DNA of 64,000 nt, taken from a virus. Positions 2,419-56,424 of the stretch are shown one piece after another. The notes beneath the pieces were generated by a model. That model worked only from the letters and a program-made list of their open reading frames with translations. It did not search any database and had not been told where the DNA came from. Each line of letters opens with the position of its first letter. Positions within the stretch are counted from its first letter, which is position 1. The position numbers were made by a program, and so were the translations under genes. The stretch is from positions 1 through 64,000 of IMG/VR virus record IMGVR_UViG_3300020731_000774; one strand, given 5' to 3'.

Positions 2419-3153
2419 TTAAATATATCTTAATTCTATATCACCTTTGGTATTTTCAATTAAATATGAGCAAGATTCTACCATATCACCCGTATTATAA
2501 TACATTTTACCATTTAAATCATCAATAGCAGGTGTGTGTATATGTCCAATCATTATCCCATCACAATTATTTTCTTCTATTTTCTTCATACTTAGATATT
2601 TAAAATCATTTATAAAAGATATAGCATCTTTTACTTTACTTTTTAAAAATTTAGATAATGACCAATATTCTAATCCGAATAATTTTCTTATTTTATTATA
2701 AATGGTATTTATTTTAAAACTAAATTCGTATGCCCAATCACCTAACATATACAAAAACGGATGTAATCTAACAAATCCATCAAATTGATCACCATGACAT
2801 ATGTAAATTGTTTTATTTTTAATAGTTGTATAATACATATAATCAGATATTTCAATATCACCAAGTGATATATTTCCCTCTTTTATAAGTTCTCTTAGAT
2901 AAAAATCATGATTTCCTAGTATGTAATTAACTTTTATATTTTTTCTAGATAATCTTAATATTTTTTGAATGACTGTTGAGTGATTTTCATTCCAATAGAA
3001 TTTTCTTTTTAGTGATGTTAGATCTATAAAATCACCTACAATAATAAGTTGTTCGAACTCATATTTTTTAAGTACCTCTAACAATTTATCAGCTTGACAT
3101 TTTTTTGTGCCTAAATGCACATCTGATATAAATAATGTTCTAATTTTCTCCAT
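2419..3153 (-). CDS. UDP-2,3-diacylglucosamine hydrolase-like metallophosphoesterase
   Basis: SDVHLG, GDFID, GNHD, HGDQFD, GHIH motifs. Confidence 0.85.
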   Translation of the reverse strand: MEKIRTLFISDVHLGTKKCQADKLLEVLKKYEFEQLIIVGDFIDLTSLKRKFYWNENHSTVIQKILRLSRKNIKVNYILGNHDFYLRELIKEGNISLGDIEISDYMYYTTIKNKTIYICHGDQFDGFVRLHPFLYMLGDWAYEFSFKINTIYNKIRKLFGLEYWSLSKFLKSKVKDAISFINDFKYLSMKKIEENNCDGIMIGHIHTPAIDDLNGKMYYNTGDMVESCSYLIENTKGDIELRYI

Positions 3154-18977: not shown

Positions 18978-19166
18978 TTAATTTTCCGATAAGATATTGT
19001 TTATTTTTTTATCCCTGAAATCAATAATTATTTCTTTATTTAAAATATCAACCAAACTAACATCATCATTATTTGATAAAATATTAAAAATGTTTTCACA
19101 AGTATAATCAGTTACAATATTTTTATATACTATAAAACCATTTTCATTTATAATTAAATCACTCAT
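18978..19166 (-). CDS. Small protein with RDxKI motif
   Basis: FRDKKINNIL at the C-terminus; overlaps the UvsW-C stop. Confidence 0.5.
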   Translation of the reverse strand: MSDLIINENGFIVYKNIVTDYTCENIFNILSNNDDVSLVDILNKEIIIDFRDKKINNILSEN

Positions 19167-19502
19167 AAATTTAATTTCAATATTTTAAATGGATATTTTC
19201 GTTTCACATAAAATCCCTCCCTCTCTTTATAATGTCTAAATAGTGCATTGGTCATATCATTCGGATCAAATATATCTACTAAGTCAAAAATAGTTGCTTT
19301 ATCCTTTAAAAAATGGAGCCTTAAGGACCTCCCCACACTTTGGATAATTATCTGCTCACTCTTAAATGAATCTGCGAATATTACGTTAAATATTGCATTT
19401 ATTGACACACCTGTTGATAATGTACCGTCAATATGAGGCAACTAAAACTTTAGTTGCCCCTTCTTCTCTAATTTCTTCTCTTTTGTCTATTATTCTAGCC
19501 AT
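19163..19502 (-). CDS. uvsW: UvsW-like helicase, C-terminal subunit, interrupted by a 4-nt TGAC insertion
   Basis: ATG at 19502 gives MARIIDKREEIREEGATKVLVASY-TGA; the +1 frame continues GTLSTGVSIN...QSVGRSLR (motifs V and VI). Confidence 0.85.
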
Positions 19503-20461
19503 TAGTATTTTATTGTTTTTATTATAGAATCTAATAAAATATAATTATTTTCATTTAAATGATTTATTGAAACTTTATTATCAGTGTCTCTATATTTTCT
19601 TATTAGATGAGTGCTGAATTTATATTTTTTAACTATATCCTCCATATTTTCAAAAACTTCAACATCTCCGTTATTTTTTATTATTTCTATTTTTAATCCA
19701 TTTCGCTTTTTGCGATTTTTCATTTTTTCTAAATAATCAGGATCTTCCCATTTCTTCTTTATCTTAATACCGGCATCAATTCTTTTAGTTTCATCTTTGT
19801 TTATTTTATCCATTTTTTCTTTAAAGTTTAGTCGGTATTCTTCATTCATACTATCCCATCTATCTTGTGTTTCTTTTCTTTTCTTTTCAACATTTTCAAA
19901 ATTAGAATAATATTCGCTCATTTGTTTAGATTTCTCTATTCGTTTATCTTCGGTCCAATAACTTTTCATTTTATTACAAAAATCTATATACTCATCATCT
20001 GATATATTATCCCAAAAAATATTAGCTCTCCTTGTTTGTTCTTCTTTAGATATATTTTTCATAAACTCAGATCTACTTTTTCTCCAATTATTATATTTCT
20101 CTGTATCATTTTTTAAGTTGATCCATCCTTTTTTAGCAGCATTTGATGTTTCATAACTATTTTTATAATAATTCATCATCCAGTTTAATGGTCTTTGATA
20201 AGTTCTTATATTTATCGCTTTAAATAACCAAAGATGTACTAAACGATGACTATCATAGTCTAGTTCAATAATATTCCAATATTCGTTTTCAAACTCAGGA
20301 AAAGTAGATCTTGGTAATATGTGGTGTTTTTCAGAATATTCTACACTTTCTGATATTTTATAATTGATTAAAAAGTTAATATATTTATCTAAGTATTCTG
20401 AATTATCAACACTTTCATGTCTTTTTATTAAAGCATCTTTTAAAAAATTATAATCTCTCAT
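19502..20461 (-). CDS. Free-standing HNH homing endonuclease inserted in uvsW
   Basis: EKHHILPRS.FP...N...L....H...H followed by helical K/W-rich repeats; own TAATATATA at 20466-20474. Confidence 0.8.
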   Translation of the reverse strand: MRDYNFLKDALIKRHESVDNSEYLDKYINFLINYKISESVEYSEKHHILPRSTFPEFENEYWNIIELDYDSHRLVHLWLFKAINIRTYQRPLNWMMNYYKNSYETSNAAKKGWINLKNDTEKYNNWRKSRSEFMKNISKEEQTRRANIFWDNISDDEYIDFCNKMKSYWTEDKRIEKSKQMSEYYSNFENVEKKRKETQDRWDSMNEEYRLNFKEKMDKINKDETKRIDAGIKIKKKWEDPDYLEKMKNRKKRNGLKIEIIKNNGDVEVFENMEDIVKKYKFSTHLIRKYRDTDNKVSINHLNENNYILLDSIIKTIKY

Positions 20462-20505
20462 AATGTATATATTATATTAATACTTACTCCTGTTGAAAAA
20501 GTATA

Positions 20506-21948
20506 TTATTTTTTTAGTTTTTCTAAAAAATCATCATCAATATCATCATCTTTATTAATATCCTTTGCTAATTTATATTTACCATTAGATAATAATATTT
20601 GGGTATCTGATTTAACATCTATTTGGAAATTACCAAAATTTAGAATTGTATATTCAACACTTTCTTTGGTTATTTCCATTAGTTTTTTAATTTCTTCTCT
20701 TTTTTTACCACTTACTTCACCATCTATATAATAGAACTCTTTATCTGTTATTTCACTTTTCAATTTATTGAATATTTTTTGACCATTTTCAATAGTATGA
20801 AAAAGTAGTAGAGTATTATTATTACATTTATTAACTAAATTTTTGATAAATTCTAATCTTTTATCAGATTGGTGAATGTATGCTTTTTCAAAATCAAATG
20901 CTGCTTTACCATCTCCGCTTTTCCTGACCAATTTTAATCTTTCATGGAACTCTTTATCATTATGGTTAAGTAATAAAACTTTTATATCCATTGGTGTTAT
21001 AATTCCTTTCTTTTTTAATTCATCTGCACTAACTTCGGTTATTTTCGGACCAAGTACTGATTGTATTGTTAGTATTTCGCAACTATCATCAAGTGGGAAT
21101 GTTCCAGATACACCAAATCTAGAATAGGCATGTCCAAATGTATTTTCCAATATTGTTGTTATGGTCTTTGCTTTAGCACCATGTGATTCGTCAACTGCTA
21201 TTGTATGGAATTGTTGAAAGAATTTTTTAGGCCATTTTTCAAGTGATTGATAAGTACCTATATAAATATTTGGGTTATCAGCACCTGAAAACTTTCTTGG
21301 TTTATCAGACATAACTTCTTCTATTCGTATAGTATTATCTATATTTGATTTATCTTGTAAGTTATTTTCACCATAATAATATTCTAAAAAATTATCATAA
21401 AATTGTGTCACTAAGGTAATTGAGGGAACGATTACGAGAAATTTAGCATCTTTTTTAATGTTTTTTAGAGTATAAAAAGCAACTATTGATATGATCAATG
21501 ATTTACCACCAGAAGTAGCAACCTCTGCCATACAAAAGCGATTTTTTAATATTTTATATGCTGCTTCAATTTGATGATCATAAGGCATGAATGAATTCCA
21601 ACCACCTTCTTTATTTTTAACTTTATGATTTTTAAAAAAATCTTTACAGAAGTCTTGAACTTTTTCAAGTGTTACATCACGATTAATTGGAAAGTCTTCT
21701 TTATTTTCTAGAAGAAAAGGCATTTCAATTTCTTTACATCCTCTCATAGCTTCTTTCCATAGACCTAGATTTATTCTACCATTTTTGAAATGTGGAATAT
21801 TCCCATCCCATATACCAGCTTTAACTAAAGGATGATATTTCCAACCCTTTGGTTTTCTAGTAAGCCAAAGTTCCATTTGGAAATATTCAGTCCTAGTTGC
21901 CTCTGATACAACTAGTTCCTCTTTCTCTTTATCATATCTAAATTTCAT
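20506..21948 (-). CDS. uvsW: UvsW-like SF2 helicase, N-terminal subunit (motifs I-IV)
   Basis: PYDHQ, ATSGGKS, VPS..LV.Q, DESH, SGT, YYIDGEV; ends before motif V with a ~50-aa extension. Confidence 0.9.
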   Translation of the reverse strand: MKFRYDKEKEELVVSEATRTEYFQMELWLTRKPKGWKYHPLVKAGIWDGNIPHFKNGRINLGLWKEAMRGCKEIEMPFLLENKEDFPINRDVTLEKVQDFCKDFFKNHKVKNKEGGWNSFMPYDHQIEAAYKILKNRFCMAEVATSGGKSLIISIVAFYTLKNIKKDAKFLVIVPSITLVTQFYDNFLEYYYGENNLQDKSNIDNTIRIEEVMSDKPRKFSGADNPNIYIGTYQSLEKWPKKFFQQFHTIAVDESHGAKAKTITTILENTFGHAYSRFGVSGTFPLDDSCEILTIQSVLGPKITEVSADELKKKGIITPMDIKVLLLNHNDKEFHERLKLVRKSGDGKAAFDFEKAYIHQSDKRLEFIKNLVNKCNNNTLLLFHTIENGQKIFNKLKSEITDKEFYYIDGEVSGKKREEIKKLMEITKESVEYTILNFGNFQIDVKSDTQILLSNGKYKLAKDINKDDDIDDDFLEKLKK

Positions 21949-22069
21949 TTCATGTTATATATAAAAAATAAATAAATGTTTATTTAAATAAAAAAATATT
22001 ATTTTTTGCTGGTTTTTTATAGAGGGAAGAAGAAAAAAGATATATATACATAAAAAATATTTAAAAATT

Positions 22070-22432
22070 ATGGGATTTATATCATGGCTTAAAGATCTTT
22101 TCAAAAGAGAGCATGAAGTACAAGCAGAAGTTAAAACTATTGCTGAGGAAGTTAAAACGGTTACAGATGAAGCTAAACCAGTTGTTGAAGATGTAAAAGT
22201 AGTTATTGACAAAGTTGAAAAAACTATCAATGAAGAACCAACTGAAAAAATTGTTGAAAGATTAGTTGAGGTTGCTAAGGATGAAAAAGTTACAGCTAAA
22301 GAAATTAAGGCTAAGGCTAAAAGAACTCCTAAACCAAAAACTGAAACACCTACTGAGGTTGCACCTGAGGCTAAAACAGCTCCAAAAAAACCACGTAGAA
22401 AACCATCACCAAAAAAACCAAAAGGTGAATAA
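22070..22432 (+). CDS. Glu/Lys-rich protein with a basic Pro/Lys tail
   Basis: Composition and codon usage support the + strand ORF; terminator follows. Confidence 0.6.
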   Translation: MGFISWLKDLFKREHEVQAEVKTIAEEVKTVTDEAKPVVEDVKVVIDKVEKTINEEPTEKIVERLVEVAKDEKVTAKEIKAKAKRTPKPKTETPTEVAPEAKTAPKKPRRKPSPKKPKGE

Positions 22433-22451
22433 TGTTTGCCAAAACATAAAT

Positions 22452-22483
22452 AAAAAACCACTCAATTTTGAGTGGTTTTTTTT
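22452..22483. terminator. Bidirectional intrinsic terminator
   Basis: AAAAACCACTCA-attt-TGAGTGGTTTTT. Confidence 0.8.
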
Positions 22484-22489
22484 ATTCTT

Positions 22490-23155
22490 TTATTTTAATC
22501 TATAAGATGGATTGAATATGTATATCTCTACTACTAAGTTTTCTAATTGAGATAATTCCTCTAAACCATTTAAATTCAACCACTCATCTATATTTGCTTT
22601 TTTTGGTGGTTGTCCTAGCAATGATACATTACTAGGAATATTACGAGTTACGTTATTAACATTTTTATTTTTATATTTATACGTTAATTGTATTTCAAAA
22701 CCAACATCAATTATCATGAATAATTTACTATAAACCCCTTTGAGATCCATTACAAAATCTTTAAAATCCTTGTAATTAAAATCGGTTAATCCAATTTTAT
22801 ATTCACCTGATGTCAATAGAAATTTTTCATATAAATCATAACTATTATCTATAAATTCCTGAATATAATCTATTACTTCATCTTTAGTTGCATCAATATC
22901 AAATGCTTTAAAAAAAGAATTTGCATCTTGTATAGTGCTACTTGCTTTTTTGATATAATCTTTGTTTACATTTCTAATAAAATCCACTAAATATTGAATA
23001 GTATCTTTAGTAAATAAACTAGGATGTGCTGCTAAAACACTATCTATTAGTGGTTGTATTCTAATATCCCAAAATTCTTTATTAACTAATGGGCTTCTTT
23101 TAAAAGAAGTTTGGTCATACTCATTTGACTCTACTATTTTTGAAAATTTTCTCAT
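22490..23155 (-). CDS. Putative capsid-internal protein (MRKFxKIxES family)
   Basis: N-terminus MRKFSKIVES resembles those of 34581 and 35327. Confidence 0.55.
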   Translation of the reverse strand: MRKFSKIVESNEYDQTSFKRSPLVNKEFWDIRIQPLIDSVLAAHPSLFTKDTIQYLVDFIRNVNKDYIKKASSTIQDANSFFKAFDIDATKDEVIDYIQEFIDNSYDLYEKFLLTSGEYKIGLTDFNYKDFKDFVMDLKGVYSKLFMIIDVGFEIQLTYKYKNKNVNNVTRNIPSNVSLLGQPPKKANIDEWLNLNGLEELSQLENLVVEIYIFNPSYRLK

Positions 23156-23174
23156 AATTTATATATTAAAAAAT

Positions 23175-23201
23175 AAAACCACATTTTTTAAATGTGGTTT
23201 T
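23175..23201 (-). terminator. Intrinsic terminator after serA
   Basis: AAAACCACATTT-ttt-AAATGTGGTTTT. Confidence 0.7.
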
Positions 23202-23205
23202 ATTT

Positions 23206-24186
23206 TTAGAATGTTCCGAATTCGGCTTTTATTAATTCTGCTAATTCAAGTCCTATACGATCTTGTGCTTCTAATGTAGCAGCACCAATATGTGGTGTTA
23301 CAGCTATTTTAGGATGATATAAAAGATCATTATTTGGATTTGGCTCATCTTCAAATACATCTAATGCAGCTGCTGCTACCTGTCCATTTTCTAATGCTAC
23401 CAATAAATCATCTTCATTTACTACACCACCTCTAGAGGCATTTACAATTCTAACACCTTTTTTCATTAGATTGAATTCTCGTTCATTAATAACAGAATCA
23501 CCATTTTCTTGTTTTGGTATATGAACTGAAATATAATCACATTTAGGTAGTAATTCATCAATACTAGTAGTTGTTTTAATATTTATACCTACTTGATTAG
23601 ATACATCCTGTCCTTCAGATGTTGTCCAAGGTAAGTTTAAATAAACTGTTTCTGTTTTTTCTTCAATATCAACTGCTAATACTCTCATACCCATACCAAT
23701 AGCATAACTTGCTAACGATTGACCAATTCTACCAAATCCAATTATACCTAATGTTTTGCCTCTTAATTCTATTCCACTTGCATAATATTTCTTCAAATAG
23801 TCAAAATCTTTTTTATTCATCTGTCTAGATGAATCATATAATGATCTAGATATGGAAAACATTTGACCAATTACCAATTCCGCTACGGATTGTGAACTAG
23901 ATGCGGGTGTATTAATTACTTTAATTCCTCTTTCTCTTGCATATGATACTGATATATTATCCATACCAACACCACCTCTACCGATTAATTTTAGATTAGG
24001 ACAACCATCAATAATATCTTCTCTTATTTTTGTTGCACTTCTAACAAGAACTATTTCATAGTTTTCTTCATTAATTTTATTAATAAGATCTTTTTGATCT
24101 ACTTTTTCAGTTACTACAGTGTAACCAGCATTTTCTAATGCTAATTTACCTTCATCTGAAATACCATCGTTTGCTAATATTTTCAT
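23206..24186 (-). CDS. serA: D-3-phosphoglycerate / D-2-hydroxyacid dehydrogenase
   Basis: VRSAT, GRGGVGMDNI, GIIGFGRIG, NASRGG, LDVF..EP, TPHIGA.T.EAQ. Confidence 0.85.
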   Translation of the reverse strand: MKILANDGISDEGKLALENAGYTVVTEKVDQKDLINKINEENYEIVLVRSATKIREDIIDGCPNLKLIGRGGVGMDNISVSYARERGIKVINTPASSSQSVAELVIGQMFSISRSLYDSSRQMNKKDFDYLKKYYASGIELRGKTLGIIGFGRIGQSLASYAIGMGMRVLAVDIEEKTETVYLNLPWTTSEGQDVSNQVGINIKTTTSIDELLPKCDYISVHIPKQENGDSVINEREFNLMKKGVRIVNASRGGVVNEDDLLVALENGQVAAAALDVFEDEPNPNNDLLYHPKIAVTPHIGAATLEAQDRIGLELAELIKAEFGTF

Positions 24187-24211
24187 ATATTTTTTATTTT
24201 TTTATTTTAAA

Positions 24212-24862
24212 TTATTCATTATATCTTATTTCATTTTCATCAAATATAGATCTCAATTTAAAGTCTCTAATAAATGATTTGAACTTTTCACAAAATGCTT
24301 CAATATTTTTATCATTTTCTTTCTCCATTCTAACTAACATCTTATTTAAAAAAGTTTCAATTGAATCATTGGTTGTTAAATTGTTTAAATTTTTACCTGG
24401 TCCTAAATATGAATTAAATAACTTTAATAGATTTGTTGAATTTCTAAAAGGTGAATTTTTATCTAGATTGCATTCATTTTCTATTTCAGAATATAATTCT
24501 CTAACTGCATTTACTGTTTCTTTATTACCCTCTAATGAGGAAAATTCTAAACCATTACATTCATGTAATTTGACCCAAAATTTAGCACCCCCTAATTCAA
24601 CATTATTAGGATAATTTAATTTATCTGCTTTTGATTTAACATTTGGTATAGAAAAAGTAATTGAACTAAACTGAGAACTTCCCTTTCTAATATAAATTCT
24701 TTCTACTTTAATTAGAGTTCCCTTTGGAATTTCAACAACTTGTGTGTGTTTTGATATATTTAATTTCTCATGTAGAGTATTTCTATATTCATTATATAAA
24801 GTAAATTGCCAATCTTGTTCTAGTTTTAGAATTGTTCCAATATCTGGTATAAATAGTTCCAT
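24212..24862 (-). CDS. Hypothetical phage protein
   Basis: LFIPDIG...DW.F.LYNEYRN..RIYIRKG; C-terminal IRDFKLRSIF. Confidence 0.55.
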   Translation of the reverse strand: MELFIPDIGTILKLEQDWQFTLYNEYRNTLHEKLNISKHTQVVEIPKGTLIKVERIYIRKGSSQFSSITFSIPNVKSKADKLNYPNNVELGGAKFWVKLHECNGLEFSSLEGNKETVNAVRELYSEIENECNLDKNSPFRNSTNLLKLFNSYLGPGKNLNNLTTNDSIETFLNKMLVRMEKENDKNIEAFCEKFKSFIRDFKLRSIFDENEIRYNE

Positions 24863-24866
24863 ATAA

Positions 24867-25517
24867 TTATTTTCTTTTTTGTATTATTTCATCAATCATT
24901 CCATATTTCTTAGCTTCAGTAGCACTCATCCAGTAATCACGATCACTATCTTTATATACTTTATCATATGTTTGACCAGTATTTTCAGAAATTATATCAT
25001 ATAATTCTTTTTTAAGAGAGTTTATTTCTTTTGCATCAATTTCTATATCAGATGCTTGTGCATAACTAGCACCAAAACCAAGTGGCTGATGAATCATAGT
25101 GCGACTTCTTTTAAGTGCTTTTCTCTTTCCCTTTGTGCCACCACATAAAAGAACTGCTGCCATAGATGCAGCAAGACCAGTATTAACTGTTATGATATCA
25201 GGTTTAACAAATTCCATAACATCAAGTAGTCCCAAACCGGAATAGACATCACCTCCACCAGAACAAATATAGAGTGTTATATCATTATCATTAAGACTTT
25301 CCATATATAATAATTGAGCTTTTATAAGATCACATATATAATCATCAACTTCTCCGGTTAACATAATTATTCTATCGTCTAATAATTTACTAAAAACATC
25401 TGTTGGGTGTAAAGTTGGTTCAAAAATACCACTTGTATTTTTTTTATAATAATTTATATAACTGCTGTTTATTTTTTTACTTTTTGCAAATTTTTCAAAA
25501 TCAGTTGAATTATCCAT
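24867..25517 (-). CDS. clpP: ATP-dependent Clp protease proteolytic subunit
   Basis: DVFS.LL.DRII, GLAASMA, MIHQP, DRDYWMSA.EA..YG.ID. Confidence 0.92.
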   Translation of the reverse strand: MDNSTDFEKFAKSKKINSSYINYYKKNTSGIFEPTLHPTDVFSKLLDDRIIMLTGEVDDYICDLIKAQLLYMESLNDNDITLYICSGGGDVYSGLGLLDVMEFVKPDIITVNTGLAASMAAVLLCGGTKGKRKALKRSRTMIHQPLGFGASYAQASDIEIDAKEINSLKKELYDIISENTGQTYDKVYKDSDRDYWMSATEAKKYGMIDEIIQKRK

Positions 25518-25612
25518 TAATTTATTTTTTTCTTTTTTATCTATAAATAATATAAAAGTTTAATTAAATATAGTTTTGAAAATTAATATATACTAAAAAA
25601 TAAAATAATAAT

Positions 25613-25888
25613 ATGAAAACAACTGTAGAAATTAATGGATACTTTATTGATATTGAAGAAAAGGATGGAGTTATCTCTGTAACTGCAACTAAAGATGAAG
25701 AAGTTGTAGAAGAATTCTCAATTGATACTGAAGAAGGTCAAGAAGATGAAGAAGGTCAAGACGAAGATGCTCAATCATTTGATAAATTTGATAAAGAGGA
25801 AGAGGAAGAGGATTTTGAAGATGAAGATGAAGAAGATGAAGAAGGTAAATTAGAATCTTTTCAATCTTTTATCAATAAAAAGAAATAA
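25613..25888 (+). CDS. Small highly acidic protein
   Basis: Asp/Glu tracts; C-terminal LESFQSFI; late motif upstream. Confidence 0.6.
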   Translation: MKTTVEINGYFIDIEEKDGVISVTATKDEEVVEEFSIDTEEGQEDEEGQDEDAQSFDKFDKEEEEEDFEDEDEEDEEGKLESFQSFINKKK

Positions 25889-25935
25889 TTAATTATTTTT
25901 TGTATATTTGCAAATAAATATAAATAAATTGGTTT

Positions 25936-27051
25936 ATGAGTGATAAAAATGGATTAACTAAATCCAATGATAGTTTAAATAATAAGGATGTAATGTTTTA
26001 TTATTCATTTGATTGGGATAATAATATTCTTGATATGCCTACTAAAATCCATATGGAACACCTAATTGATGGTGATTGGATGCCTGAGGATGTGTCTACA
26101 TCAGATTTTGCTATTGTTAGGTCAGATAATGAGAATTGGAGATTATTAAATAATGATCCAGCATCAGCTTTTTCAGAATTTAGAGATAATGGACCAAGGG
26201 GTGAAGATGCTTTTTTAGATGATGTTAAGATTGCTATATCTGAAAAAAAATTCGCACCATCTTGGGATGATTTTATAGAGTGTATTATAAATGGATCTGT
26301 ATTTTCTATAATAACTGCACGTGGTCATGAACCTAGACCAATGAGAAAAGGAGTTGAATATATTATTGATAATATCTTAACTAATGATCAAAAAGATGAG
26401 ATGTATAATCATCTATTAAAATTTGTATACCTTTTTAATGGGGATGGTATAGATACGATACCAAGATTTCTTGATACAAATACACCATCTAAGAATAAAT
26501 TAGTAATTAACTATTTAGATAATTGTGATTTTATTGGGGTTTCTGCTCCATCAAGAGGTGGTAATGCGAGTAATCCAGAAGAGGCTAAGGAGATGGCTCT
26601 TTTAGATTTCAAATCTAAAATTGATAAGTTTGCTAAAAATATTGGATTAAAAGCCAGAATTGGTTTTTCGGATGATGATTTAAAAAATGTTAAACACATT
26701 GAGTATTTAATGAATAATATAAATCATGAACGTTTTCCTAATATAGTAGAATTTGTAGTTAAAAATACAAATAATCCAAAAAATGTAACTAAATCTTCTA
26801 GAAAATTTGAAGGTATTAAAAAATATAAAGAATTTAGAGAAAGTCAAGATCCTATGCAAACATCTACTATGTCTATGCAAACACCAAATGCTGCAATGTC
26901 TGGTGATATGAATAGTCAAGAGCCATTCATAGCAAGGATGATTGGGCAAACAAAACTTTTAACAAAATTATCAAATAATGCTGTTAAAAAAAAGAAAAAA
27001 ATTAAAAAAATAATAACTAAAGATGATATTACAAATCCACCTAAAATATAG
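25936..27051 (+). CDS. HAD-superfamily-like protein
   Basis: FDWDNNI, IITARG, K, GFSDDD. Confidence 0.6.
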   Translation: MSDKNGLTKSNDSLNNKDVMFYYSFDWDNNILDMPTKIHMEHLIDGDWMPEDVSTSDFAIVRSDNENWRLLNNDPASAFSEFRDNGPRGEDAFLDDVKIAISEKKFAPSWDDFIECIINGSVFSIITARGHEPRPMRKGVEYIIDNILTNDQKDEMYNHLLKFVYLFNGDGIDTIPRFLDTNTPSKNKLVINYLDNCDFIGVSAPSRGGNASNPEEAKEMALLDFKSKIDKFAKNIGLKARIGFSDDDLKNVKHIEYLMNNINHERFPNIVEFVVKNTNNPKNVTKSSRKFEGIKKYKEFRESQDPMQTSTMSMQTPNAAMSGDMNSQEPFIARMIGQTKLLTKLSNNAVKKKKKIKKIITKDDITNPPKI

Positions 27052-27064
27052 GTGGATTTTTTTT
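27033..27064 (+). terminator. Intrinsic terminator
   Basis: AAATCCACCTA-aaata-TAGGTGGATTT followed by a T tract. Confidence 0.75.
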
Positions 27065-27105
27065 GAATATCAAAACTTATATAAAAATAAACATATATTA
27101 TATAT

Positions 27106-28296
27106 ATGGATAAGGAATATATAAAAGGTTTAATACAAAAAATACTAAATAAAGAATTTTCATCTTCTACTAGAAGACGTATTAATGATTTTAATGATAG
27201 ATTTAATTTTTGTGCACCTTGTTGTGGTGATTCTCACAAAAATGAACATAAAAAAAGGGGTAATCTATATCTTAATAAATTGAGATACATTTGTTTCAAT
27301 TGTGGTGCATCTATGACACTTGATAAACTATGTAAAAAATTTAATGAACAAGTAGATCCTGATAAAAAATTAGAAATGATAGAACACTTAAATAGTGTTG
27401 TCACTTATTCAGATTATGAAAATGATATGTCCGATGCTAAATTAGAAAATCTAATTGATTTATCAGAACTTGAAAGAGTTTTCTCTAATAATTTAACACC
27501 CATATCAGATTTTAAACCAATACAATTAAATGGTGGTGTATATAAATACTTATTAAATAGAGGTATTGGTCCAGAATTACATGAAAATATTTATCAAGGT
27601 AAATATTGGAAAAATGAAGATGAATCAGAATGGATAATAATAATGTTAAATAGGAGAGATGATAAAGTATTAGGTATGCAAATTCGTAATCTTAAAGAAG
27701 GTAAACGAAGAATGTTCAAAATATATAATTATGAAAATTTACATGAATGGGTCAGTATTGGAAAAGATGAACCTGATATTGATATAAATGAATTAGTTCT
27801 TTATAATAAATTGTCATATTATTTTAACATACTTAATGTTAACTTAGGTGATGTTATTACAGTTTTTGAAGGATATATAGATTCTATGTTTTATCCCAAT
27901 TCGATTGGTTTAGTTGGAGTTAATACTGATAATACATTACTTGAGAATAATGGTCTAGATATAAGATATTTTTATGATAATGATGATGCAGGTTTTAAAA
28001 AATCCGAGCAAAAAATAAAAGCTGGTTATCCTGTTTTTCTATGGAAAAAATTATTCCAAGATATAGTGGATAAAAAGAAAACAGATGATCCTGATCGTTT
28101 ATTACATAGGATAAGTAAAGTCAAGGATATGAACAAATTAGCACAACTAGTAGAAGATCCATATAATAAATTAGGACTAGATGATTTTTTCAGTAAAGAT
28201 GAATATGATTTGAAATGGATACCAAAAGTTGTAAGAGTTAATAAAATACAAGAAGTTGACTATAATAAAAAATTTAAATTTTTTGATTCTTTCTAA
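27106..28296 (+). CDS. DNA primase (T4 gp61-like)
   Basis: Zinc finger CAPCCGDS...K.RG...CFNC; TOPRIM FEGYIDS, YDNDDAG, KDMN. Confidence 0.85.
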   Translation: MDKEYIKGLIQKILNKEFSSSTRRRINDFNDRFNFCAPCCGDSHKNEHKKRGNLYLNKLRYICFNCGASMTLDKLCKKFNEQVDPDKKLEMIEHLNSVVTYSDYENDMSDAKLENLIDLSELERVFSNNLTPISDFKPIQLNGGVYKYLLNRGIGPELHENIYQGKYWKNEDESEWIIIMLNRRDDKVLGMQIRNLKEGKRRMFKIYNYENLHEWVSIGKDEPDIDINELVLYNKLSYYFNILNVNLGDVITVFEGYIDSMFYPNSIGLVGVNTDNTLLENNGLDIRYFYDNDDAGFKKSEQKIKAGYPVFLWKKLFQDIVDKKKTDDPDRLLHRISKVKDMNKLAQLVEDPYNKLGLDDFFSKDEYDLKWIPKVVRVNKIQEVDYNKKFKFFDSF

Positions 28297-28339
28297 AATA
28301 GAATGTCATTTTATTTATATATAAAAATAAAATGAAATT

Positions 28340-28696
28340 ATGAAAAATAAATTAATTGATAATATCAAGTGGTTTTTCACTGAGATAATGAATATTTACT
28401 CTAATAAAGAATCTTTTTTCTCTAAAAAAAGAATTGAATCTGGAATTGGATTTATAATTGCTGAATGGGGTATGATATTCTTTTTGGTTAAAAAAATAGA
28501 TGTTTTAGATGCTTATGGATTTGGTTTATGGGCATCTATACAATTTTTTATAGCTGGTTATATTATTAAACAAATCCAAAAGGAGAAAAGTGATAATCAA
28601 AATATATCTGATATATCTACTTCTGATTCTTCAAATGAAACAACTAATCCCGAAACAACTAATACTGATGGAACATCAACAGATGTACAAAAATAA
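28340..28696 (+). CDS. Two-TM membrane protein, possible holin
   Basis: SKKR followed by two hydrophobic helices and a polar tail. Confidence 0.4.
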   Translation: MKNKLIDNIKWFFTEIMNIYSNKESFFSKKRIESGIGFIIAEWGMIFFLVKKIDVLDAYGFGLWASIQFFIAGYIIKQIQKEKSDNQNISDISTSDSSNETTNPETTNTDGTSTDVQK

Positions 28697-28728
28697 AAAA
28701 AATCCACTCAAATGAGTGGATTTTTTTT
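28697..28728. terminator. Bidirectional intrinsic terminator
   Basis: AAAAAATCCACTCA-aa-TGAGTGGATTTTTT. Confidence 0.8.
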
Positions 28729-29128
28729 ATTTACCAAATTTTCTTGTAGTTTTATAAGATTTACTCTCATTATACTTTTTTTCAATATTTACATACTTAA
28801 TAACAGCATAAACATCATTAGTTTTTAGGTCAACACCATCTACAACATAATTACCAGTCTCTGATGGTTGTTCTATTTCATAACCTTTATATGTAAGAAT
28901 ATTATTATGTAATTCAGAACCCTCTAATTTATCATGTAAATATGATAAACCATCTTTATATCCAGCTAATGGATCATCTTGCACTGAAGGTCTCTCAGTT
29001 GGTATAACTGATGGTCTCATCGGTCTAGCTGGTTTAGGTGTAATTGTTGGTGCAGGTGTTGTTGTTGGTGCAGGTTTAGATTCAGAACCATATACAAACT
29101 CTTCATATTTTTTAACTATTTTTCCCAT
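28727..29128 (-). CDS. Putative capsid-internal protein, Pro/Thr-rich
   Basis: MGKIVKKYEEF N-terminus; late motif upstream. Confidence 0.5.
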   Translation of the reverse strand: MGKIVKKYEEFVYGSESKPAPTTTPAPTITPKPARPMRPSVIPTERPSVQDDPLAGYKDGLSYLHDKLEGSELHNNILTYKGYEIEQPSETGNYVVDGVDLKTNDVYAVIKYVNIEKKYNESKSYKTTRKFGK

Positions 29129-29161
29129 TGTTTTAGTTTATTTTTACTTATATATTAATAT

Positions 29162-29647
29162 CTATTTTTGTCTTTCTTGTATTTCATTAACAACAAAATC
29201 AAAAAATATATCTAACTCATACTCCAATCCCTCACAAAAATCATATAAATCATATTTTTCATTCTTTATGAAAAATTCAGGTATTATAAATCCATCATTT
29301 AATAACACAATCTTACCCACCATTCTACCTGGTATTCTTCTACCACTTGATAATTTTAAATCAGGGCAATATATAATACCAATATAGTGTGTTTCAATTT
29401 CAGATGTCTTTTTATTCCTTTTAACTTCCTTATTTATGTATTCAAATTTAAATATCCCAAGATCATCTATAAAAGTCCTATCCGCCTCATCTTTTAATAA
29501 AATTTTAAGATACTCTAATTCTTCACCATTCTTAAAAGAATCTAAAAAATCAATTTCTAATTTACTTAGTGCTGAAATACCATGTTTAGATATCTTATCT
29601 AATAAACCATCCACCCTTTTCTGAATACCATAATCATTATCTTCCAT
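29162..29647 (-). CDS. Protein with N-terminal DUF6576-like motif
   Basis: VDGLLDKISKHGISALSKLEIDFL. Confidence 0.55.
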   Translation of the reverse strand: MEDNDYGIQKRVDGLLDKISKHGISALSKLEIDFLDSFKNGEELEYLKILLKDEADRTFIDDLGIFKFEYINKEVKRNKKTSEIETHYIGIIYCPDLKLSSGRRIPGRMVGKIVLLNDGFIIPEFFIKNEKYDLYDFCEGLEYELDIFFDFVVNEIQERQK

Positions 29648-29694
29648 AAGATATTTAATACTTTATAGTATATATTAATATTAGAATTAATATT

Positions 29695-30024
29695 TTATAC
29701 AATTACTTTCCAGTTATTGAAATATGGTTCTTTATCTAATAACCTATCTCTTACTGTTTTATAGACTAAGTCCAAATCACCAGAAGTTTGATAAATTGAT
29801 ATAAAATTATTGTTTATTTCACTAGGATTGAAATCATTATATATATTGTTTAATATATTGTTTATTTTATTATCCCTTTCCCACTTCTTAACTTCAGTTG
29901 ACCAACTATCAATAAAGAATATAAGAAAATCCTCAGTAGTATGATCTCTAATCATGTCAAAGTCTATCCCATCATAGAACCGAATAATAGATGTTGTAAT
30001 ATTTATCTCCTCAATTAATCTCAT
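29695..30024 (-). CDS. Hypothetical protein with RDxKI motif
   Basis: ERDNKINNIL. Confidence 0.55.
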   Translation of the reverse strand: MRLIEEINITTSIIRFYDGIDFDMIRDHTTEDFLIFFIDSWSTEVKKWERDNKINNILNNIYNDFNPSEINNNFISIYQTSGDLDLVYKTVRDRLLDKEPYFNNWKVIV

Positions 30025-30062
30025 AAAATAAAATAAAATAAAAATGATGTAGATTTTCTACA

Positions 30063-31538
30063 TCATTTTTTAGAAACCTTTCCAAATCCACCAAATATAT
30101 CCTGTATAACTGATAATCTTTCTGTAATTTCTGGCATACCCAATGGTTCAATAATTGTATTGATTGGTGATAAAATAGATTTAGCAAATTGTATATCATA
30201 ATCTATTTCAGGTGCTACCTCAATAGGTAATGATCCCCTAATATAGGCAAATATATCACCATTTTTCTTATTCTTACAATAATAATACTTAATCTTTGTC
30301 CCAGACTTAATAAATTCATATCGTGTTTGTAACTCCTTATTCTGTTTCAATAAATAATTATGATATGCACTTGCTTTAACTGCAAAGTGAGCACCATTAA
30401 CAAACTTTAATGGCAATGAATTATCATCAATTACCTTAGTATCATAATTAGAACAAGATGATTGCATTGAAATATCATCAATATCAGCTAACTCAAATTC
30501 CTTTCTAAGATTCTTAACCAATTTTAATAAGTCCTTTATGTTAAAGGTATCAGAATTCTCAAATAAATATTTAACAATTGTGATAATCTTTTCCCTTGCA
30601 AATAAAGGTGTGGAAGATCTTACCAATTCAACTCCCTTTGGAAATAAATATGTTAACCTATCGTAATTTATACCATCCTCAAATGAAACATGTTGAATAT
30701 ATTTCTTTTTTGCCAAACTGATAACCGATTCTGATATACGTTCTAACTCAAAATCTTGTCTGTTCTCAACACCATATAAATCACCATAATCTACTAAACA
30801 CTTTTTAAAATATCCACCATATCTGAAATGGTCTATACCTTGGATATAATCCAATTCTTTACACCAATTCCATTTAGGTTTAACCGTTAATGCACCATTA
30901 TTTATTAAATCATTTAAACCATAATCCTTAACAAATACACCATCAATTAAAACCAAATCATATTCTAATGTTAATAACTTCTCAAATTCATCAACAGTTT
31001 TAGAAATACCTAAACAATTTGGATTATTAAAACTTGGAAGTTCATTTGATAAAATGATAAATTTCTTACCAATGGAATTTAACATATTCGTGTTGAATAT
31101 TAAATTCTTCCATTCTGAATGTCGAATTGCTGGTTCAAATGACACAAAAAGAGAATCTGTGTCCGCGTAAATACTTACATTTTCATCCTCATTAATTTTA
31201 CTAACATTTTTTATACATAAATTCTTATGTAATTCAACATCTAGATGCCATTGATTGTGCCAATAATCTTTATTAACCTTATCCATTGTTTGTGTAAGCT
31301 GCCTACCTTGTGCAGTTATACTTCCAGCAACCGCATTATTATATAATACGAAGTAGGAAGCTGCCATCGCTCCGTAAGAACCGTTCAATACTAATTTTAG
31401 TCTTTTACCCCCAATACATTGTATTGGGGGCTACAAAAGAGCGAGCTGAAGGGCATTGTAATAGTCTGCCTCCTTCTTTAGCTCGCTCGCTTGTTTTTTT
31501 AAAGACTCGATCTTTAATTTTTTTTCTTCTCTAGTCAT
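30063..31538 (-). CDS. Family B DNA polymerase, C-terminal subunit (gp43B-like), with an in-frame 39-nt stop-containing insertion in motif B
   Basis: ATG at 31538 gives MTREE...YYNALQLAL[L*PPIQCIGGKRL]KLVLNGSYG; downstream ITAQGR, YADTDS, KKKY, KGVELVRSSTP. Confidence 0.9.
31401..31493 (-). other. Tandem RNA hairpins around the internal TAG of polB (candidate recoding/bypass element)
   Basis: GAGCGAGCT...AGCTCGCTC stem upstream; TCTTTT-GTAG-CCCCCAATAC-AAT-GTATTGGGGG-T-AAAAGA downstream. Confidence 0.8.
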
Positions 31539-31543
31539 ATATA

Positions 31544-31570
31544 TTATATCAGAAATAATCAAATTAGTTT
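31544..31570 (-). promoter_or_regulatory. Putative middle-type promoter AAACWW-N16-TATAA upstream of polB
   Basis: Same bipartite motif with a 16-nt spacer before slyD, uvsW, 51791 and 52277. Confidence 0.55.
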
Positions 31571-31619
31571 TAAAGGGGGAGTATATTATTTTATATATAA
31601 TTAAAATAGTATAAACGAT

Positions 31620-32738
31620 ATGATTAAAGAATATAAGATTTTAATGAAGATAAATTATAGAAATGTATCACATTTTAGAAATTTAGGATATGAAATAGAA
31701 AATGGTGTTAAGGAAATGTATATTTCAGTTTGTGATTTGTTCCAGGGCTCAAATGTTAAGGTAACTGCGGTATGTGAAATATGTAGTTCTGAAAATATAA
31801 TAAATTATAGTAAGTATTTAGTTAATTTTAATAGGAATGGTAAAAACTATTATTCTTGTTTTAAATGTAAAAATATTGAGAAAGAGAAAACATGTATGGA
31901 AAAATATGGTGTTAAATCATATTCAATGACAGATGAATTTAGAGAAACAGAAAGTTTAAAATGGAAAGGCATTAAGAAAGGTGGTGATAAGGGTGAGAAA
32001 ACTATGTTAGAGAGATATGGTGTAAGATCTTATTTTGAAACGCAGGAAAGTAAGGACTATAATAGAAAGTGGATGTCATCTGATGAGTTTAGAAATAAAA
32101 GTAAGGATACATTGATAGAGAAATATGGAGTAGATTCATATTCAAAAACTGATGAATTTAAAAATAGAATGGCCGAACAAAATGAAGTTTCAAAGGAAAA
32201 GTCAAAATCTACATTTTTGGAGAGATATGGTGTTGAGTGGTATACTCAATGTGAGGAATATAGGAATACTTGTATTGAAAAGAAAGATGAGACTATCTTA
32301 AAAAATAAGGAAACATGTATGGAAAGATATGGAGTTGATAATGTTAGTAAAGTTCCTGAAGTACAACAATCTATGAAAAATACTAAAATAGAAAGAGGAT
32401 CTATACTACCTGATCATTTATTAAGTGAGTGGGAAATATATAAAAAGAATGTTAGACGAATAACTAATAAATTTGAAAAAGAATTATATGAAAACTGGGA
32501 TGGAATTGATCATTATGATGGTGAGAATATAAAGGGATATTTTTCACATACTCATACACATCGTTTCTATCCGACAATAGATCATAAAAATTCAGTTTAT
32601 TATGGATTTTTAAATAACATTGATCCAAGTGAAATTGGTTCTATTGAAAATTTATGTATAACTAAAAGATATATAAATTCTACCAAATCCAGGATGATAG
32701 AGAAAGAATTCTTAGAAAAGTTAAAAAACCAATCCTAA
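31620..32738 (+). CDS. Free-standing HNH homing endonuclease with a zinc finger and T(C/M)xE(R/K)YGV repeats
   Basis: CEIC/CFKC; five E(K/R)YGV repeats; C-terminal TIDHK.S...GF...IG...NL.I.....N..K. Confidence 0.75.
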   Translation: MIKEYKILMKINYRNVSHFRNLGYEIENGVKEMYISVCDLFQGSNVKVTAVCEICSSENIINYSKYLVNFNRNGKNYYSCFKCKNIEKEKTCMEKYGVKSYSMTDEFRETESLKWKGIKKGGDKGEKTMLERYGVRSYFETQESKDYNRKWMSSDEFRNKSKDTLIEKYGVDSYSKTDEFKNRMAEQNEVSKEKSKSTFLERYGVEWYTQCEEYRNTCIEKKDETILKNKETCMERYGVDNVSKVPEVQQSMKNTKIERGSILPDHLLSEWEIYKKNVRRITNKFEKELYENWDGIDHYDGENIKGYFSHTHTHRFYPTIDHKNSVYYGFLNNIDPSEIGSIENLCITKRYINSTKSRMIEKEFLEKLKNQS

Positions 32739-35327: not shown

Positions 35328-35725
35328 TGAGAAAATTTAGTAGAATAGTAGAATCAAATGATCCAAATATAGAAGAGATAAAATGGATTTTTATTGATTT
35401 AATTGATAATGGATTTAAGATTGAGATTAAACCATATTGGGAAGACGGTATGTTTTATTTATATAATAAAGAAAATCAACATTATGCTGATAAAAATAAA
35501 AATGGTTATTTAATAGTAGGTCACGCTGAGAAATTGACAGAAGCCAATCCATTTAAAGCTCTTAGAGATTTTCTAAGCATAGAAAAGAGAATGTTAGATT
35601 TAGGTTATGAATTAGATGATGATGGTAAAAGTGCTGATAATTCTCTAATAGAAATTGGTGGTAGATGGGTTAATAACTATCAATTTCGTTTCCCATTTAA
35701 AGAAATAAAAAACGACACCAAATAG
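35327..35725 (+). CDS. Paralog of 34581..35327
   Basis: MRKFSRIVES...IKWIFIDLIDNGF...KR..DLG. Confidence 0.55.
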   Translation: MRKFSRIVESNDPNIEEIKWIFIDLIDNGFKIEIKPYWEDGMFYLYNKENQHYADKNKNGYLIVGHAEKLTEANPFKALRDFLSIEKRMLDLGYELDDDGKSADNSLIEIGGRWVNNYQFRFPFKEIKNDTK

Positions 35726-35738
35726 TGTCGTTTTTTTT
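35707..35738. terminator. Bidirectional intrinsic terminator
   Basis: AAAAAACGACAC-caaata-GTGTCGTTTTTT. Confidence 0.8.
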
Positions 35739-43185: not shown

Positions 43186-43217
43186 AAAAAGGGTGCAATC
43201 AAGCACCCTTTTTTTTG
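43186..43217. terminator. Intrinsic terminator
   Basis: AAAAAGGGTGC-aatcaa-GCACCCTTTTT. Confidence 0.75.
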
Positions 43218-56377: not shown

Positions 56378-56389
56378 GGTTTAAAATAA
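55484..56389 (+). pseudogene. DNA cytosine-C5 methyltransferase 3, split by an in-frame TAA at 55865-55867
   Basis: QDFIS*MMGCEP aligns with QDVISEHLGVEP of copy 1; both halves are in the same frame. Confidence 0.8.
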
Positions 56390-56391
56390 TA

Positions 56392-56422
56392 AAAACCCCT
56401 TAGAAAATTCTAAGGGGTTTTT
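56392..56422. terminator. Bidirectional intrinsic terminator
   Basis: AAAACCCCTTAGAA-aa-TTCTAAGGGGTTTT. Confidence 0.8.
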
Positions 56423-56424
56423 GT

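Follow-up and report, generated by a model that had tools for sequence, protein, structure and literature searches.

Candidate ribosome-hopping homing cassettes in the helicase and polymerase genes of a freshwater huge phage

How might a phage express replication genes that are interrupted by stop codons inside their own catalytic motifs? The question is raised by IMG/VR record IMGVR_UViG_3300020731_000774, a metagenomic contig of 77.7 kb, of which we analysed positions 1-64,000 (hereafter the window, a stretch of 64,000 nucleotides (nt)), and in which the genes for the helicase UvsW (uvsW) and the DNA polymerase PolB (polB) both lie in pieces. A sequence-only reading of the window had proposed that short inserts, associated with neighboring nuclease genes, are skipped during translation of both genes, akin to the gene 60 cassette of phage T4. 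Here, we compared the two loci to ~150 related sequences, comprising 70 usable loci for polB (69 IMG/VR relatives and the window) and 80 relatives for uvsW. We consider it likely that the window contains two independent cassettes of homing endonucleases, both including a short coding gap over which ribosomes would hop by programmed translational bypass. The evidence comes from the anatomy of the two loci, the recurrence of gaps among relatives, the selection acting around them, their linkage to nuclease genes, and an empty site on a contig from another lake study.

At uvsW, the N-terminal half is followed by a free-standing gene for a Mob-type HNH homing endonuclease, and the ATG of the C-terminal half (position 19502) overlaps the stop codon of that nuclease gene (TAATG). 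The head of the C-terminal half ends in ...KVLVASY and then runs into a TGA (19430-19428), i.e., 24 codons past its ATG. Direct reading and a script agreed on the position of this stop and of that in polB (35 codons past the ATG), both within catalytic motifs, just as the sequence-only reading had described. The unsplit uvsW of a relative, LR756502, reads ...KVLIASFGTLSTGVSINA... across the same region; the window has 4 nt more, TGAC, beyond which the helicase motifs continue in the +1 frame. The proposed insert is thus a genuine gap, albeit one of only 4 nt. The nuclease carries an HHILP...H...H motif, read directly from its sequence, and has a MobD-like protein as its nearest match (tblastn E 2e-8, 25% identity).

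A contig from another lake study (X6 record 9) contains the corresponding empty site: 19414 is joined to 20669 by 46 other letters, with near-identical flanks. The coding content of these letters was deduced from their number and by comparison with relatives: gap-free uvsW relatives have 15 codons at this place, in agreement with 46 nt, which sets the length of the cassette to 1,254 nt. It comprises, in this order, a 53-amino acid (aa) tail for the N-terminal half, the HNH gene, the head of 24 codons including a replacement region, the gap, and a further 12 nt. The empty-site contig indicates that the cassette is polymorphic for presence and absence in the same population. A nuclease-less joint in run X3 (19502 to 20518) is weak, with 33 letters only on one side.

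At polB, the C-terminal half opens with ATG at 31538 and is stopped by TAG at 31433-31431 within motif B (QLAL / KLVLNGSYG). Directly abutting the TAG, the G of which can contribute a further G-U pair, is a hairpin (31430-31408) with a perfect 10-bp stem (CCCCCAATAC / GTATTGGGGG; outer CCCCC/GGGGG) and a 3-nt loop. Downstream of the ensuing A-rich spacer TAAAAGA, the sequence CTA-AAA-TTA... encodes LKLVLNGSYG in frame. A hop from CTT to the synonymous CTA would span 39 nt and yield a product of 478 aa, compared to 474 aa in an uninterrupted relative. In LR745206, the C-terminal half likewise starts ~34 codons before motif B and reads through ...YYNALQLALKLVLNGSYGA..., relative to which the window has 39 nt more. 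Sequence reality, a check suggested by the sequence-only reading, was confirmed by an independent contig from 2012 and another sample, which spans the polB gap without indels.

The nuclease gene beside polB lies 82 nt upstream of the C-terminal half in divergent orientation, so that both C-terminal halves do adjoin nuclease genes. Its product is unrelated to the uvsW-side HNH protein and combines a zinc ribbon, DUF7487 repeats and a C-terminal HNH-type D-H...N...N module, of which DHK...N...N is invariant in 13 homologs. The best fold matches of a predicted model (predicted local distance difference test score of 84) were HNH domains, with weak E-values; at the sequence level, neither nuclease of the window matched a solved structure. 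The polB locus comprises nuclease, recoded head and gap, with no adjoining ORF1 (ORF, open reading frame). The sequence-only reading was right that both genes are in pieces, but the division of polB was not the work of the resident nuclease: it is common to all relatives, with or without a nuclease gene, and the exonuclease/N-terminal half (515-531 aa) is a separate ORF ~100 kb away from the C-terminal half in two 98%-complete relatives. In this clade, the polymerase is a permanently split two-gene enzyme, and the split is ancestral. In these two relatives, the halves map to about 172-173 kb vs. 76-77 kb (G001, which holds locus L031) and to about 443 kb vs. 330-337 kb (G002, which holds L045).

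Gaps in motif B of polB occurred at 47 of the 70 loci, the window included (46 of the 69 IMG/VR relatives). Measuring 36-48 nt, they comprise 32 distinct sequences, occupy six codon positions in a ten-codon stretch (positions 13-22 of the reference peptide), and follow one plan: a flanking codon, 5-6 nt that usually amount to a sense codon and one of the stops TAA, TAG and TGA, a hairpin, 4-8 A-rich nt, and a codon synonymous with the first. Stems measure 8-17 bp (mostly 10-12), with the outer CCCCC/GGGGG being conserved and the inner pairs varying with compensation; shuffled gaps matched the observed stem length in only 84 of 6,400 trials (1.3%). The lengths of the 32 gaps ignore the reading frame (14/10/8 modulo 3; 22 are not multiples of 3), arguing that the gaps are not translated. 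The flanking codons form matched pairs in five site classes, namely CTT/CTA (most, including the window), GCT/GCA or GCT, GTT/GTA or GTT, TCT/TCA, and GGT/GGT, always aligned to codons and always from four-fold boxes. Such pairs fit a single peptidyl-tRNA that would leave a weakly paired NNU and land on NNA, and do not fit a target-site duplication as their source. The exception is the Y/G class, where the last gap codon is AAC, AGC, GAC, CAA or TAA rather than a Tyr codon.

Preceding the putative landing codon is an A/U-rich run (e.g., TAAAAGA, TAAATGA or CAAAAA) that resembles the A-rich leaders of the phage's own start codons (50-79% A and G-poor across the contig). The GGGGG arm of the hairpin lies 4-8 nt upstream of this codon, as might a mini Shine-Dalgarno (SD) element. 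However, we found the SD core upstream of 3 of 70 contig starts, which equals the rate in random windows, and because the phage makes no use of SD sequences, we do not regard this interpretation as supported.

Most of the 80 uvsW relatives are unsplit and ungapped. In the split alleles, heads begin with MA[RK]I[IV]DKR and are interrupted right past one and the same Tyr codon. We found seven distinct gapped alleles, all with TGA directly after this codon and with gaps of 4 nt (TGAC, the window), 7 nt (TGAGGAC, TGAGAAC, TGAGTAG and TGAGTAC) or 17 nt, the latter version ending in TAA. The 4- and 7-nt gaps have no structure of their own. In L129/L130 (TGAGTAG) and L109 (17 nt), a TAG or TAA directly precedes the resume codon in the frame of the latter. 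A frameshift cannot rescue these alleles, whereas a hop that places GGT in the A site can.

In gapped alleles of both genes, coding sequence ahead of the gap forms a hairpin. In uvsW, a stem of 11-13 bp ends at the predicted take-off codon in all seven gap alleles (in the window, its last base lies 1 nt 5′ of the TAT), with a compensatory change from GCA/GTT to GCG/GTC, and the mean minimum free energy (MFE) was -18.8 kcal/mol as compared to -6.1 kcal/mol in 49 gap-free alleles. In polB, a long-range stem of 8-13 bp is shared by every allele with a gap at site 13, 14 or 17, shows compensating changes, and is absent from gap-free alleles (MFE -18.7 vs. -7.5 kcal/mol; p about 1e-6, uncorrected for relatedness). 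It ends 0-4 nt from the end of the take-off codon, in the window on the first base of that codon; at sites 20-22, stems are weaker. The coding-sequence hairpins that the sequence-only reading had drawn just ahead of the two stops thus hold up, both ending at the take-off codon. Of the second hairpins it had drawn around the stops, the polB stem abuts the TAG; that of uvsW (8 bp, 18-nt loop) is present in the window but not conserved in other gap alleles, and we rejected it as a signal and regard it as incidental.

Across gap-bearing alleles, the ratio of non-synonymous to synonymous polymorphism (pN/pS) was 0.14 and 0.21 for the head and body of uvsW and 0.27 and 0.26 for those of polB, compared to 1.2-2.1 in wrong-frame controls. 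These values indicate that purifying selection acts on both flanks of both gaps. As to an intact second copy, which the sequence-only reading had held to be incompatible with its proposal, the gapped polB C-terminal half is the sole one in the 98%-complete relative G001.

Homologs of the polB-side nuclease gene, some of them fragments, lie just upstream in divergent orientation at 28 of the 47 gapped loci and at none of the 23 ungapped loci, i.e., they are absent from 42 of the 70 loci (Fisher 2.7e-7, uncorrected for phylogeny). The nuclease tree contains two deep clades (support 100/99), one associated with sites 13, 14 and 17 and the other, apart from two uncertain exceptions to this pattern, with sites 20-22. 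A finer co-evolution of site and nuclease lineage was rejected, as only the deep split holds and sites 13, 14 and 17 are intermixed within one clade. The uvsW alleles form a decay series, with the nuclease gene being intact (window, L081), reduced to a remnant (L129) or cleanly lost while the gap is kept (L093, L109); later stages have lost gap and hairpin (L080) or re-fused the gene (L090). The L080 gene is split, has a degenerate nuclease region, and its head hairpin is broken by an Ala-to-Thr change. In L090, a single ORF keeps tail-like and head-like sequence, apparently re-fused ('hit and run'). Among contigs, the two cassettes assort independently: polB may be ungapped and uvsW gapped, the reverse, or, as in the window, both gapped. 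Co-occurrence of insert and nuclease, as expected by the sequence-only reading, hence applies in one direction: the polB nuclease is found only with gaps, but gaps persist without it. That reading had named a gap without a nuclease as a refutation, which it is not, since this matches the documented decay of MobA elements, where the nuclease gene is often lost, the gap stays, and close relatives have empty sites (bioRxiv 10.1101/2022.08.31.505936, and Bonocora et al. 2011 to the extent cited there).

Based on these observations, we propose that an intact uvsW lost 46 nt when a Mob-type HNH cassette took their place. The outcome would be an N-terminal half extended by 53 aa, followed by the HNH gene and by a C-terminal half whose 24-codon head would re-encode the lost residues, fold into a hairpin and end in TAT-TGAC-GGT. 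A ribosome that has peptidyl-tRNA-Tyr in its P site and meets UGA in its A site would advance by 4 nt and resume decoding at GGT to produce ...VLVASY-GTLSTG...; re-formation of the 5′ hairpin in its wake would probably assist this move. At polB, a different HNH-type nuclease gene would have settled upstream of the C-terminal half, the recoded head with its 5′ hairpin and the 39-nt hop coming along with it. Peptidyl-tRNA-Leu would leave CUU, skip the hairpin, re-pair with CUA, and decoding would resume at AAA, restoring ...QLAL-KLVLNGSYG... exactly. At take-off, the 3′ arm of the 5′ stem would be inside the ribosome and its re-folding behind the ribosome would favor forward movement, as has been proposed for gene 60 (bioRxiv 10.1101/2024.12.09.627546). 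By analogy with MobA/gene 60, the gap would also break the target of the nuclease and so protect its carrier.

The window's own gaps could be decoded more simply. In uvsW, a +1 frameshift at UAU-UGA-C leaves an open frame with one extra Asp (ASY-D-GTLSTG), and a stop codon in the A site is a classic stimulator of such frameshifts, as in prfB. In polB, the 39 nt are in frame and contain a single TAG, readthrough or suppression of which would add 13 residues to motif B. The case for a hop therefore rests on the relatives, and there, the majority of distinct polB gaps that are not multiples of 3 and the uvsW alleles with a stop in the shifted frame (L129/L130 and L109) speak against both events. 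Besides, slipping from UAU to AUU involves no re-pairing, and there is no SD sequence beside the site, nor SD use in the phage, as a prfB-type frameshift would have. TAG terminates six normal ORFs on the contig, which lacks a suppressor tRNA, and 13 residues including two prolines would be unlikely to be tolerated in the fingers helix of motif B. We thus regard simpler recoding as unlikely. An alternative genetic code was rejected outright: the standard code gives dense ORFs (those of at least 100 aa span ~73 kb), both TAG and TGA terminate normal ORFs (stop usage among ORFs of at least 100 aa: TAA 63, TGA 7, TAG 6), and no tRNA genes were found on the 77.7-kb contig.

That the gaps are instead removed from the mRNA, by a small splicing or a cut-and-ligate reaction for which the hairpins act as guides, with translation being ordinary, is compatible with the polB gaps being centered on a hairpin of conserved geometry. 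Yet the 4- and 7-nt gaps of uvsW offer no structure to such a reaction, the repeats beside the gaps follow the codon register and are synonyms, not exact copies, as would suit reading by a tRNA and not recognition of a cleavage site, and at gathering thresholds, Rfam had no match anywhere in the window, by which a group I intron or other known RNA was likewise rejected. To our knowledge, no hairpin-guided removal of mRNA gaps has been described in bacteria or phages, and we deem this scenario very unlikely. Even less probable is that the genes are simply broken, be it as decaying pseudogenes or as head and body made separately by termination and re-initiation, with the activity supplied from elsewhere. 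With the record being only ~12% complete (CheckV), the phage may have other copies, and uvsW is not essential in T4; however, selection maintains both sides of both gaps in many lineages, the 98%-complete relative has no other polB C-terminal half, the landing codons CTA, GCA, GTA, TCA and GGT are not start codons, and cuts at varying residues of motif B or motif V would destroy these motifs. An assembly or sequencing artefact would be conceivable for a metagenomic contig with hairpins, which can disturb sequencing, but is hardly credible in view of the independent contig from another sample and year and of related gaps in dozens of independent assemblies.

Programmed bypass thus remains our favored interpretation, and the sequence-only reading's central claim, that the gaps are skipped in translation, is supported by their recurrence in dozens of relatives, by selection on both flanks, and by the many gaps that only a hop would rescue. 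Several observations nonetheless weigh against it. No RNA runs were among the listed datasets holding the phage (15 studies). Stop codons are not uniformly placed in the 32 distinct polB gaps: the stop is mostly the second codon, but 4 gaps have it as their first, and about 6 have it late or not at all. The statistics of the nuclease-gap association ignore kinship, and 19 gapped polB loci have no detectable nuclease gene. With no SD use by the phage, one landing aid of gene 60 probably does not apply. Lastly, the codons available for landing where take-off is from Tyr (the Y/G class of polB and every uvsW allele) are mostly GAC, AAC, AGC, TAA, TAG or CAA, and TAC in only 1 of ~14; in uvsW, the sole cognate pair is TAT...TAC of the L148 group, the others ending in NAC or TAR (TAT/GAC in the window) and echoing the polB Y/G class. 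Simple re-pairing does not explain these sites, where landing might instead be set largely by the geometry of the mRNA and the 5′ hairpin.

With regard to precedents, Manning & Atkins found gene-60-type cassettes only in the topoisomerase gene, MobA elements occurring exclusively in Topo2L, and called the bypass cassette 'unique' (bioRxiv 10.1101/2022.08.31.505936). Like T4 gene 39/mobA/gene 60 with its 50-nt bypass, the uvsW cassette is an HNH element that splits a replication gene, leaving a tail on ORF1 and a head on ORF2, and it corresponds to the MobA plan element by element (53-aa tail, 319-aa HNH, 24-codon head, 4-nt gap, 46 nt replaced). Shared with gene 60 are also a head with a recoded replacement region followed by a coding gap 24-46 codons in, within a conserved motif; in part, a tRNA that can read both take-off and landing codon (five polB site classes, with CTT/CTA in the window, but mostly not the Tyr sites, with TAT/GAC in uvsW of the window); in most gaps, a stop near take-off; a hairpin in the polB gaps and an A/U-rich run before landing; a 5′ stem-loop that is stronger in insert-bearing alleles; and, as for MobA, loss of the nuclease with retention of the gap, and empty sites in close relatives. 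In contrast, the targets here are motif B of polB and motif V of uvsW, with no homology to the gene 60 cassette, and the polB nuclease is of another family and divergently transcribed. The polB hairpin starts 5-6 nt past the take-off codon, which the gene 60 hairpin contains, and the stop usually comes one codon later. Gaps occupy six codons instead of staying within plus or minus one codon as in MobA/gene 60; the uvsW gap is only 4-17 nt long, with no hairpin of its own and near-cognate landing codons; and the phage does not use SD sequences, whereas the gene 60 type has a mini SD 5-7 nt before landing. From these comparisons, the cassettes of the window appear to work like gene 60 without being members of the MobA/gene 60 element. 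The proposed extension of gene-60-like cassettes to helicase and polymerase genes is in line with all comparative tests that were run, including the restriction of the polB nuclease to gapped loci and the empty uvsW site.

Other natural precedents for bypassing are the byp elements of yeast mitochondria and a phage terminase. Lang et al. 2014 reportedly described byps in the AT-rich mitochondrial genome of Magnusiomyces capitatus as GC-rich hairpin inserts of 27-55 nt that ribosomes jump over. As here, they interrupt conserved coding sequence, have any length modulo 3, and are flanked by matched take-off and landing codons; unlike here, where two sites on 78 kb are each tied to a nuclease, byps are mitochondrial, number dozens per genome in many genes and have no link to homing endonucleases. 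In the terminase of Streptomyces phage phiHau3, a short coding gap is bypassed and not +1 frameshifted, as shown by a junction peptide (PMC10732093). We infer the same type of decoding here, yet bypass in phiHau3 is triggered by a rare UUA, is proposed to be regulatory, involves no homing endonuclease and does not concern a catalytic motif. MobE in nrdA of phage Aeh1 is a free-standing homing endonuclease that splits a gene without bypass (bioRxiv 10.1101/2022.08.31.505936); as in the present case, a nuclease insertion splits an essential gene and added tails let the halves cooperate, but there is no coding gap. None of the papers that our full-text searches on translational bypassing retrieved describes bypass for a phage polymerase or helicase.

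Coordinates of all features of the two loci are compiled in Table 1.

Table 1 Features of the uvsW and polB loci in the window (take-off and landing codons are predicted)
Feature	Position	Strand	Evidence
uvsW N-terminal half, ORF of 480 aa	20506..21948	-	Pfam ResIII/DEAD; 70% identity to unsplit UvsW of LR756502
Cassette-borne 53-aa C-terminal extension of the uvsW N-terminal half	20509-20667	-	Boundary from empty-site contig
Putative uvsW homing cassette, 1,254 nt	19415..20668	-	Empty-site contig X6 record 9
Free-standing Mob-type HNH homing endonuclease gene, 319 aa	19502..20461	-	phrog_12434 HNH endonuclease, phrog_655 homing endonuclease
uvsW C-terminal half, head of 24 codons, the last being take-off TAT (19433-19431)	19431..19502	-	Direct reading; 7 distinct gap alleles
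uvsW coding gap TGAC (TGA stop and C), 4 nt	19427..19430	-	7- and 17-nt versions at the same codon in relatives
uvsW C-terminal half past the gap, helicase motifs V and VI, resuming at GGT 19426 in the +1 frame	19163..19426	-	phrog DNA helicase E 2e-19; alignment to unsplit relatives
uvsW 5′ hairpin, 11 bp, 4-nt loop, from G-A-T-K-V-L-V-A-S codons	19435..19460	-	7/7 gap alleles
polB C-terminal half, head of 34 codons, the last being take-off CTT (31439-31437)	31437..31538	-	Direct reading; matches head of uninterrupted relatives
polB coding gap: TTG, TAG, hairpin, A-rich spacer TAAAAGA	31401..31436	-	Absent from LR745206 and 23 other relatives
polB C-terminal half past the gap, landing CTA (31400-31398), motifs B and C, thumb, to stop	30063..31400	-	Pfam DNA_pol_B; 69% identity to relatives
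polB 5′ long-range hairpin (GAGCGAGCT / AGCTCGCTC), 32-nt loop, 9 bp Watson-Crick	31439..31488	-	Alleles gapped at sites 13, 14, 17
Second homing endonuclease gene, 372 aa	31620..32738	+	Pfam DUF7487; PHROG homing endonucleases

The window has a GC content of 26%. By megablast, no near-identical annotated phage was found, relatives being detectable at the protein level only; the nearest ones in annotated collections are unannotated 'uncultured phage' genomes of 630-735 kb with ~69% aa identity. The phage itself is present in freshwater and lake metagenomes from 15 studies (2012-2022). Its A-rich, SD-less starts follow the Bacteroidota type of translation, which would point to a host from this group.

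The polB C-terminal half showed a further peculiarity in some relatives (L046, L051, L060, L065 and L073-L075), where it is broken again at motif C (DTD/S), just upstream of the tblastn match at 3001. There, a new ORF opens with a ~40-aa piece ending in ...THTFIANDILVHN directly before SLFVSF. This piece resembles the C-piece of a split intein, and nuclease-like sequence is often found close to it; the polB C-terminal half gene can thus carry three kinds of selfish insert if the intein-like piece is counted.

A scan for hairpins revealed four strong GC-rich ones on the 77.7-kb contig, of which the three besides the polB gap hairpin are terminator-like, and no further gap sites on the contig, where it returned terminator-like stems and one hairpin antisense to an intact ORF. 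The latter (56425-62214, minus strand) encodes 1,929 aa without interruption and is rich in Asn, Thr and Ser. Hairpins flanked by A- and T-runs lie at gene ends at 1912-1942, 22452-22481, 27033-27059, 28691-28732, 35707-35736, 43186-43213 and 56388-56425 of the window and at 67534-67599 and 70571-70604 of the contig; they are likely bidirectional intrinsic terminators, unlike the unflanked coding hairpins of both cassettes. At 22466, within a terminator-like stem, the length of an A/T-run varies among other lake samples, and in one run, the Thr/Ser/Asn-rich tail of ORF 28340-28696 is longer by 15 nt, inserted in frame at 28636. Two minus-strand genes resemble, by eye, auxiliary genes that are unusual for a phage, namely a ClpP-type protease subunit (24867-25517) and a D-2-hydroxyacid (phosphoglycerate) dehydrogenase (23206-24186).

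So far, T4 gene 60 has been regarded as almost the only case of efficient bypass. If our interpretation is true, bypassing is a recurrent strategy of selfish nucleases, with two further kinds of gap in a widespread clade of freshwater huge phages. More broadly, and with the scales tipping only slightly in its favor, homing endonucleases may have in ribosome hopping a general third means, in addition to introns and inteins, of residing inside essential catalytic motifs: two unrelated HNH families would each have paired with a hop cassette of their own in one huge-phage clade (36-48 nt with a hairpin in polB, a minimal 4-17 nt in uvsW), both operating without SD pairing, and with landing at Tyr sites governed largely by mRNA geometry and the re-folding 5′ hairpin instead of codon re-pairing. 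Annotation pipelines will call such gapped essential genes broken or truncated. The 32 polB and 7 uvsW variants differ in the length of the hop (4-48 nt), in the codon for landing and in whether they have an early stop or a hairpin, and would provide natural material for dissecting the take-off and landing of ribosomes, also where Shine-Dalgarno pairing plays no part.

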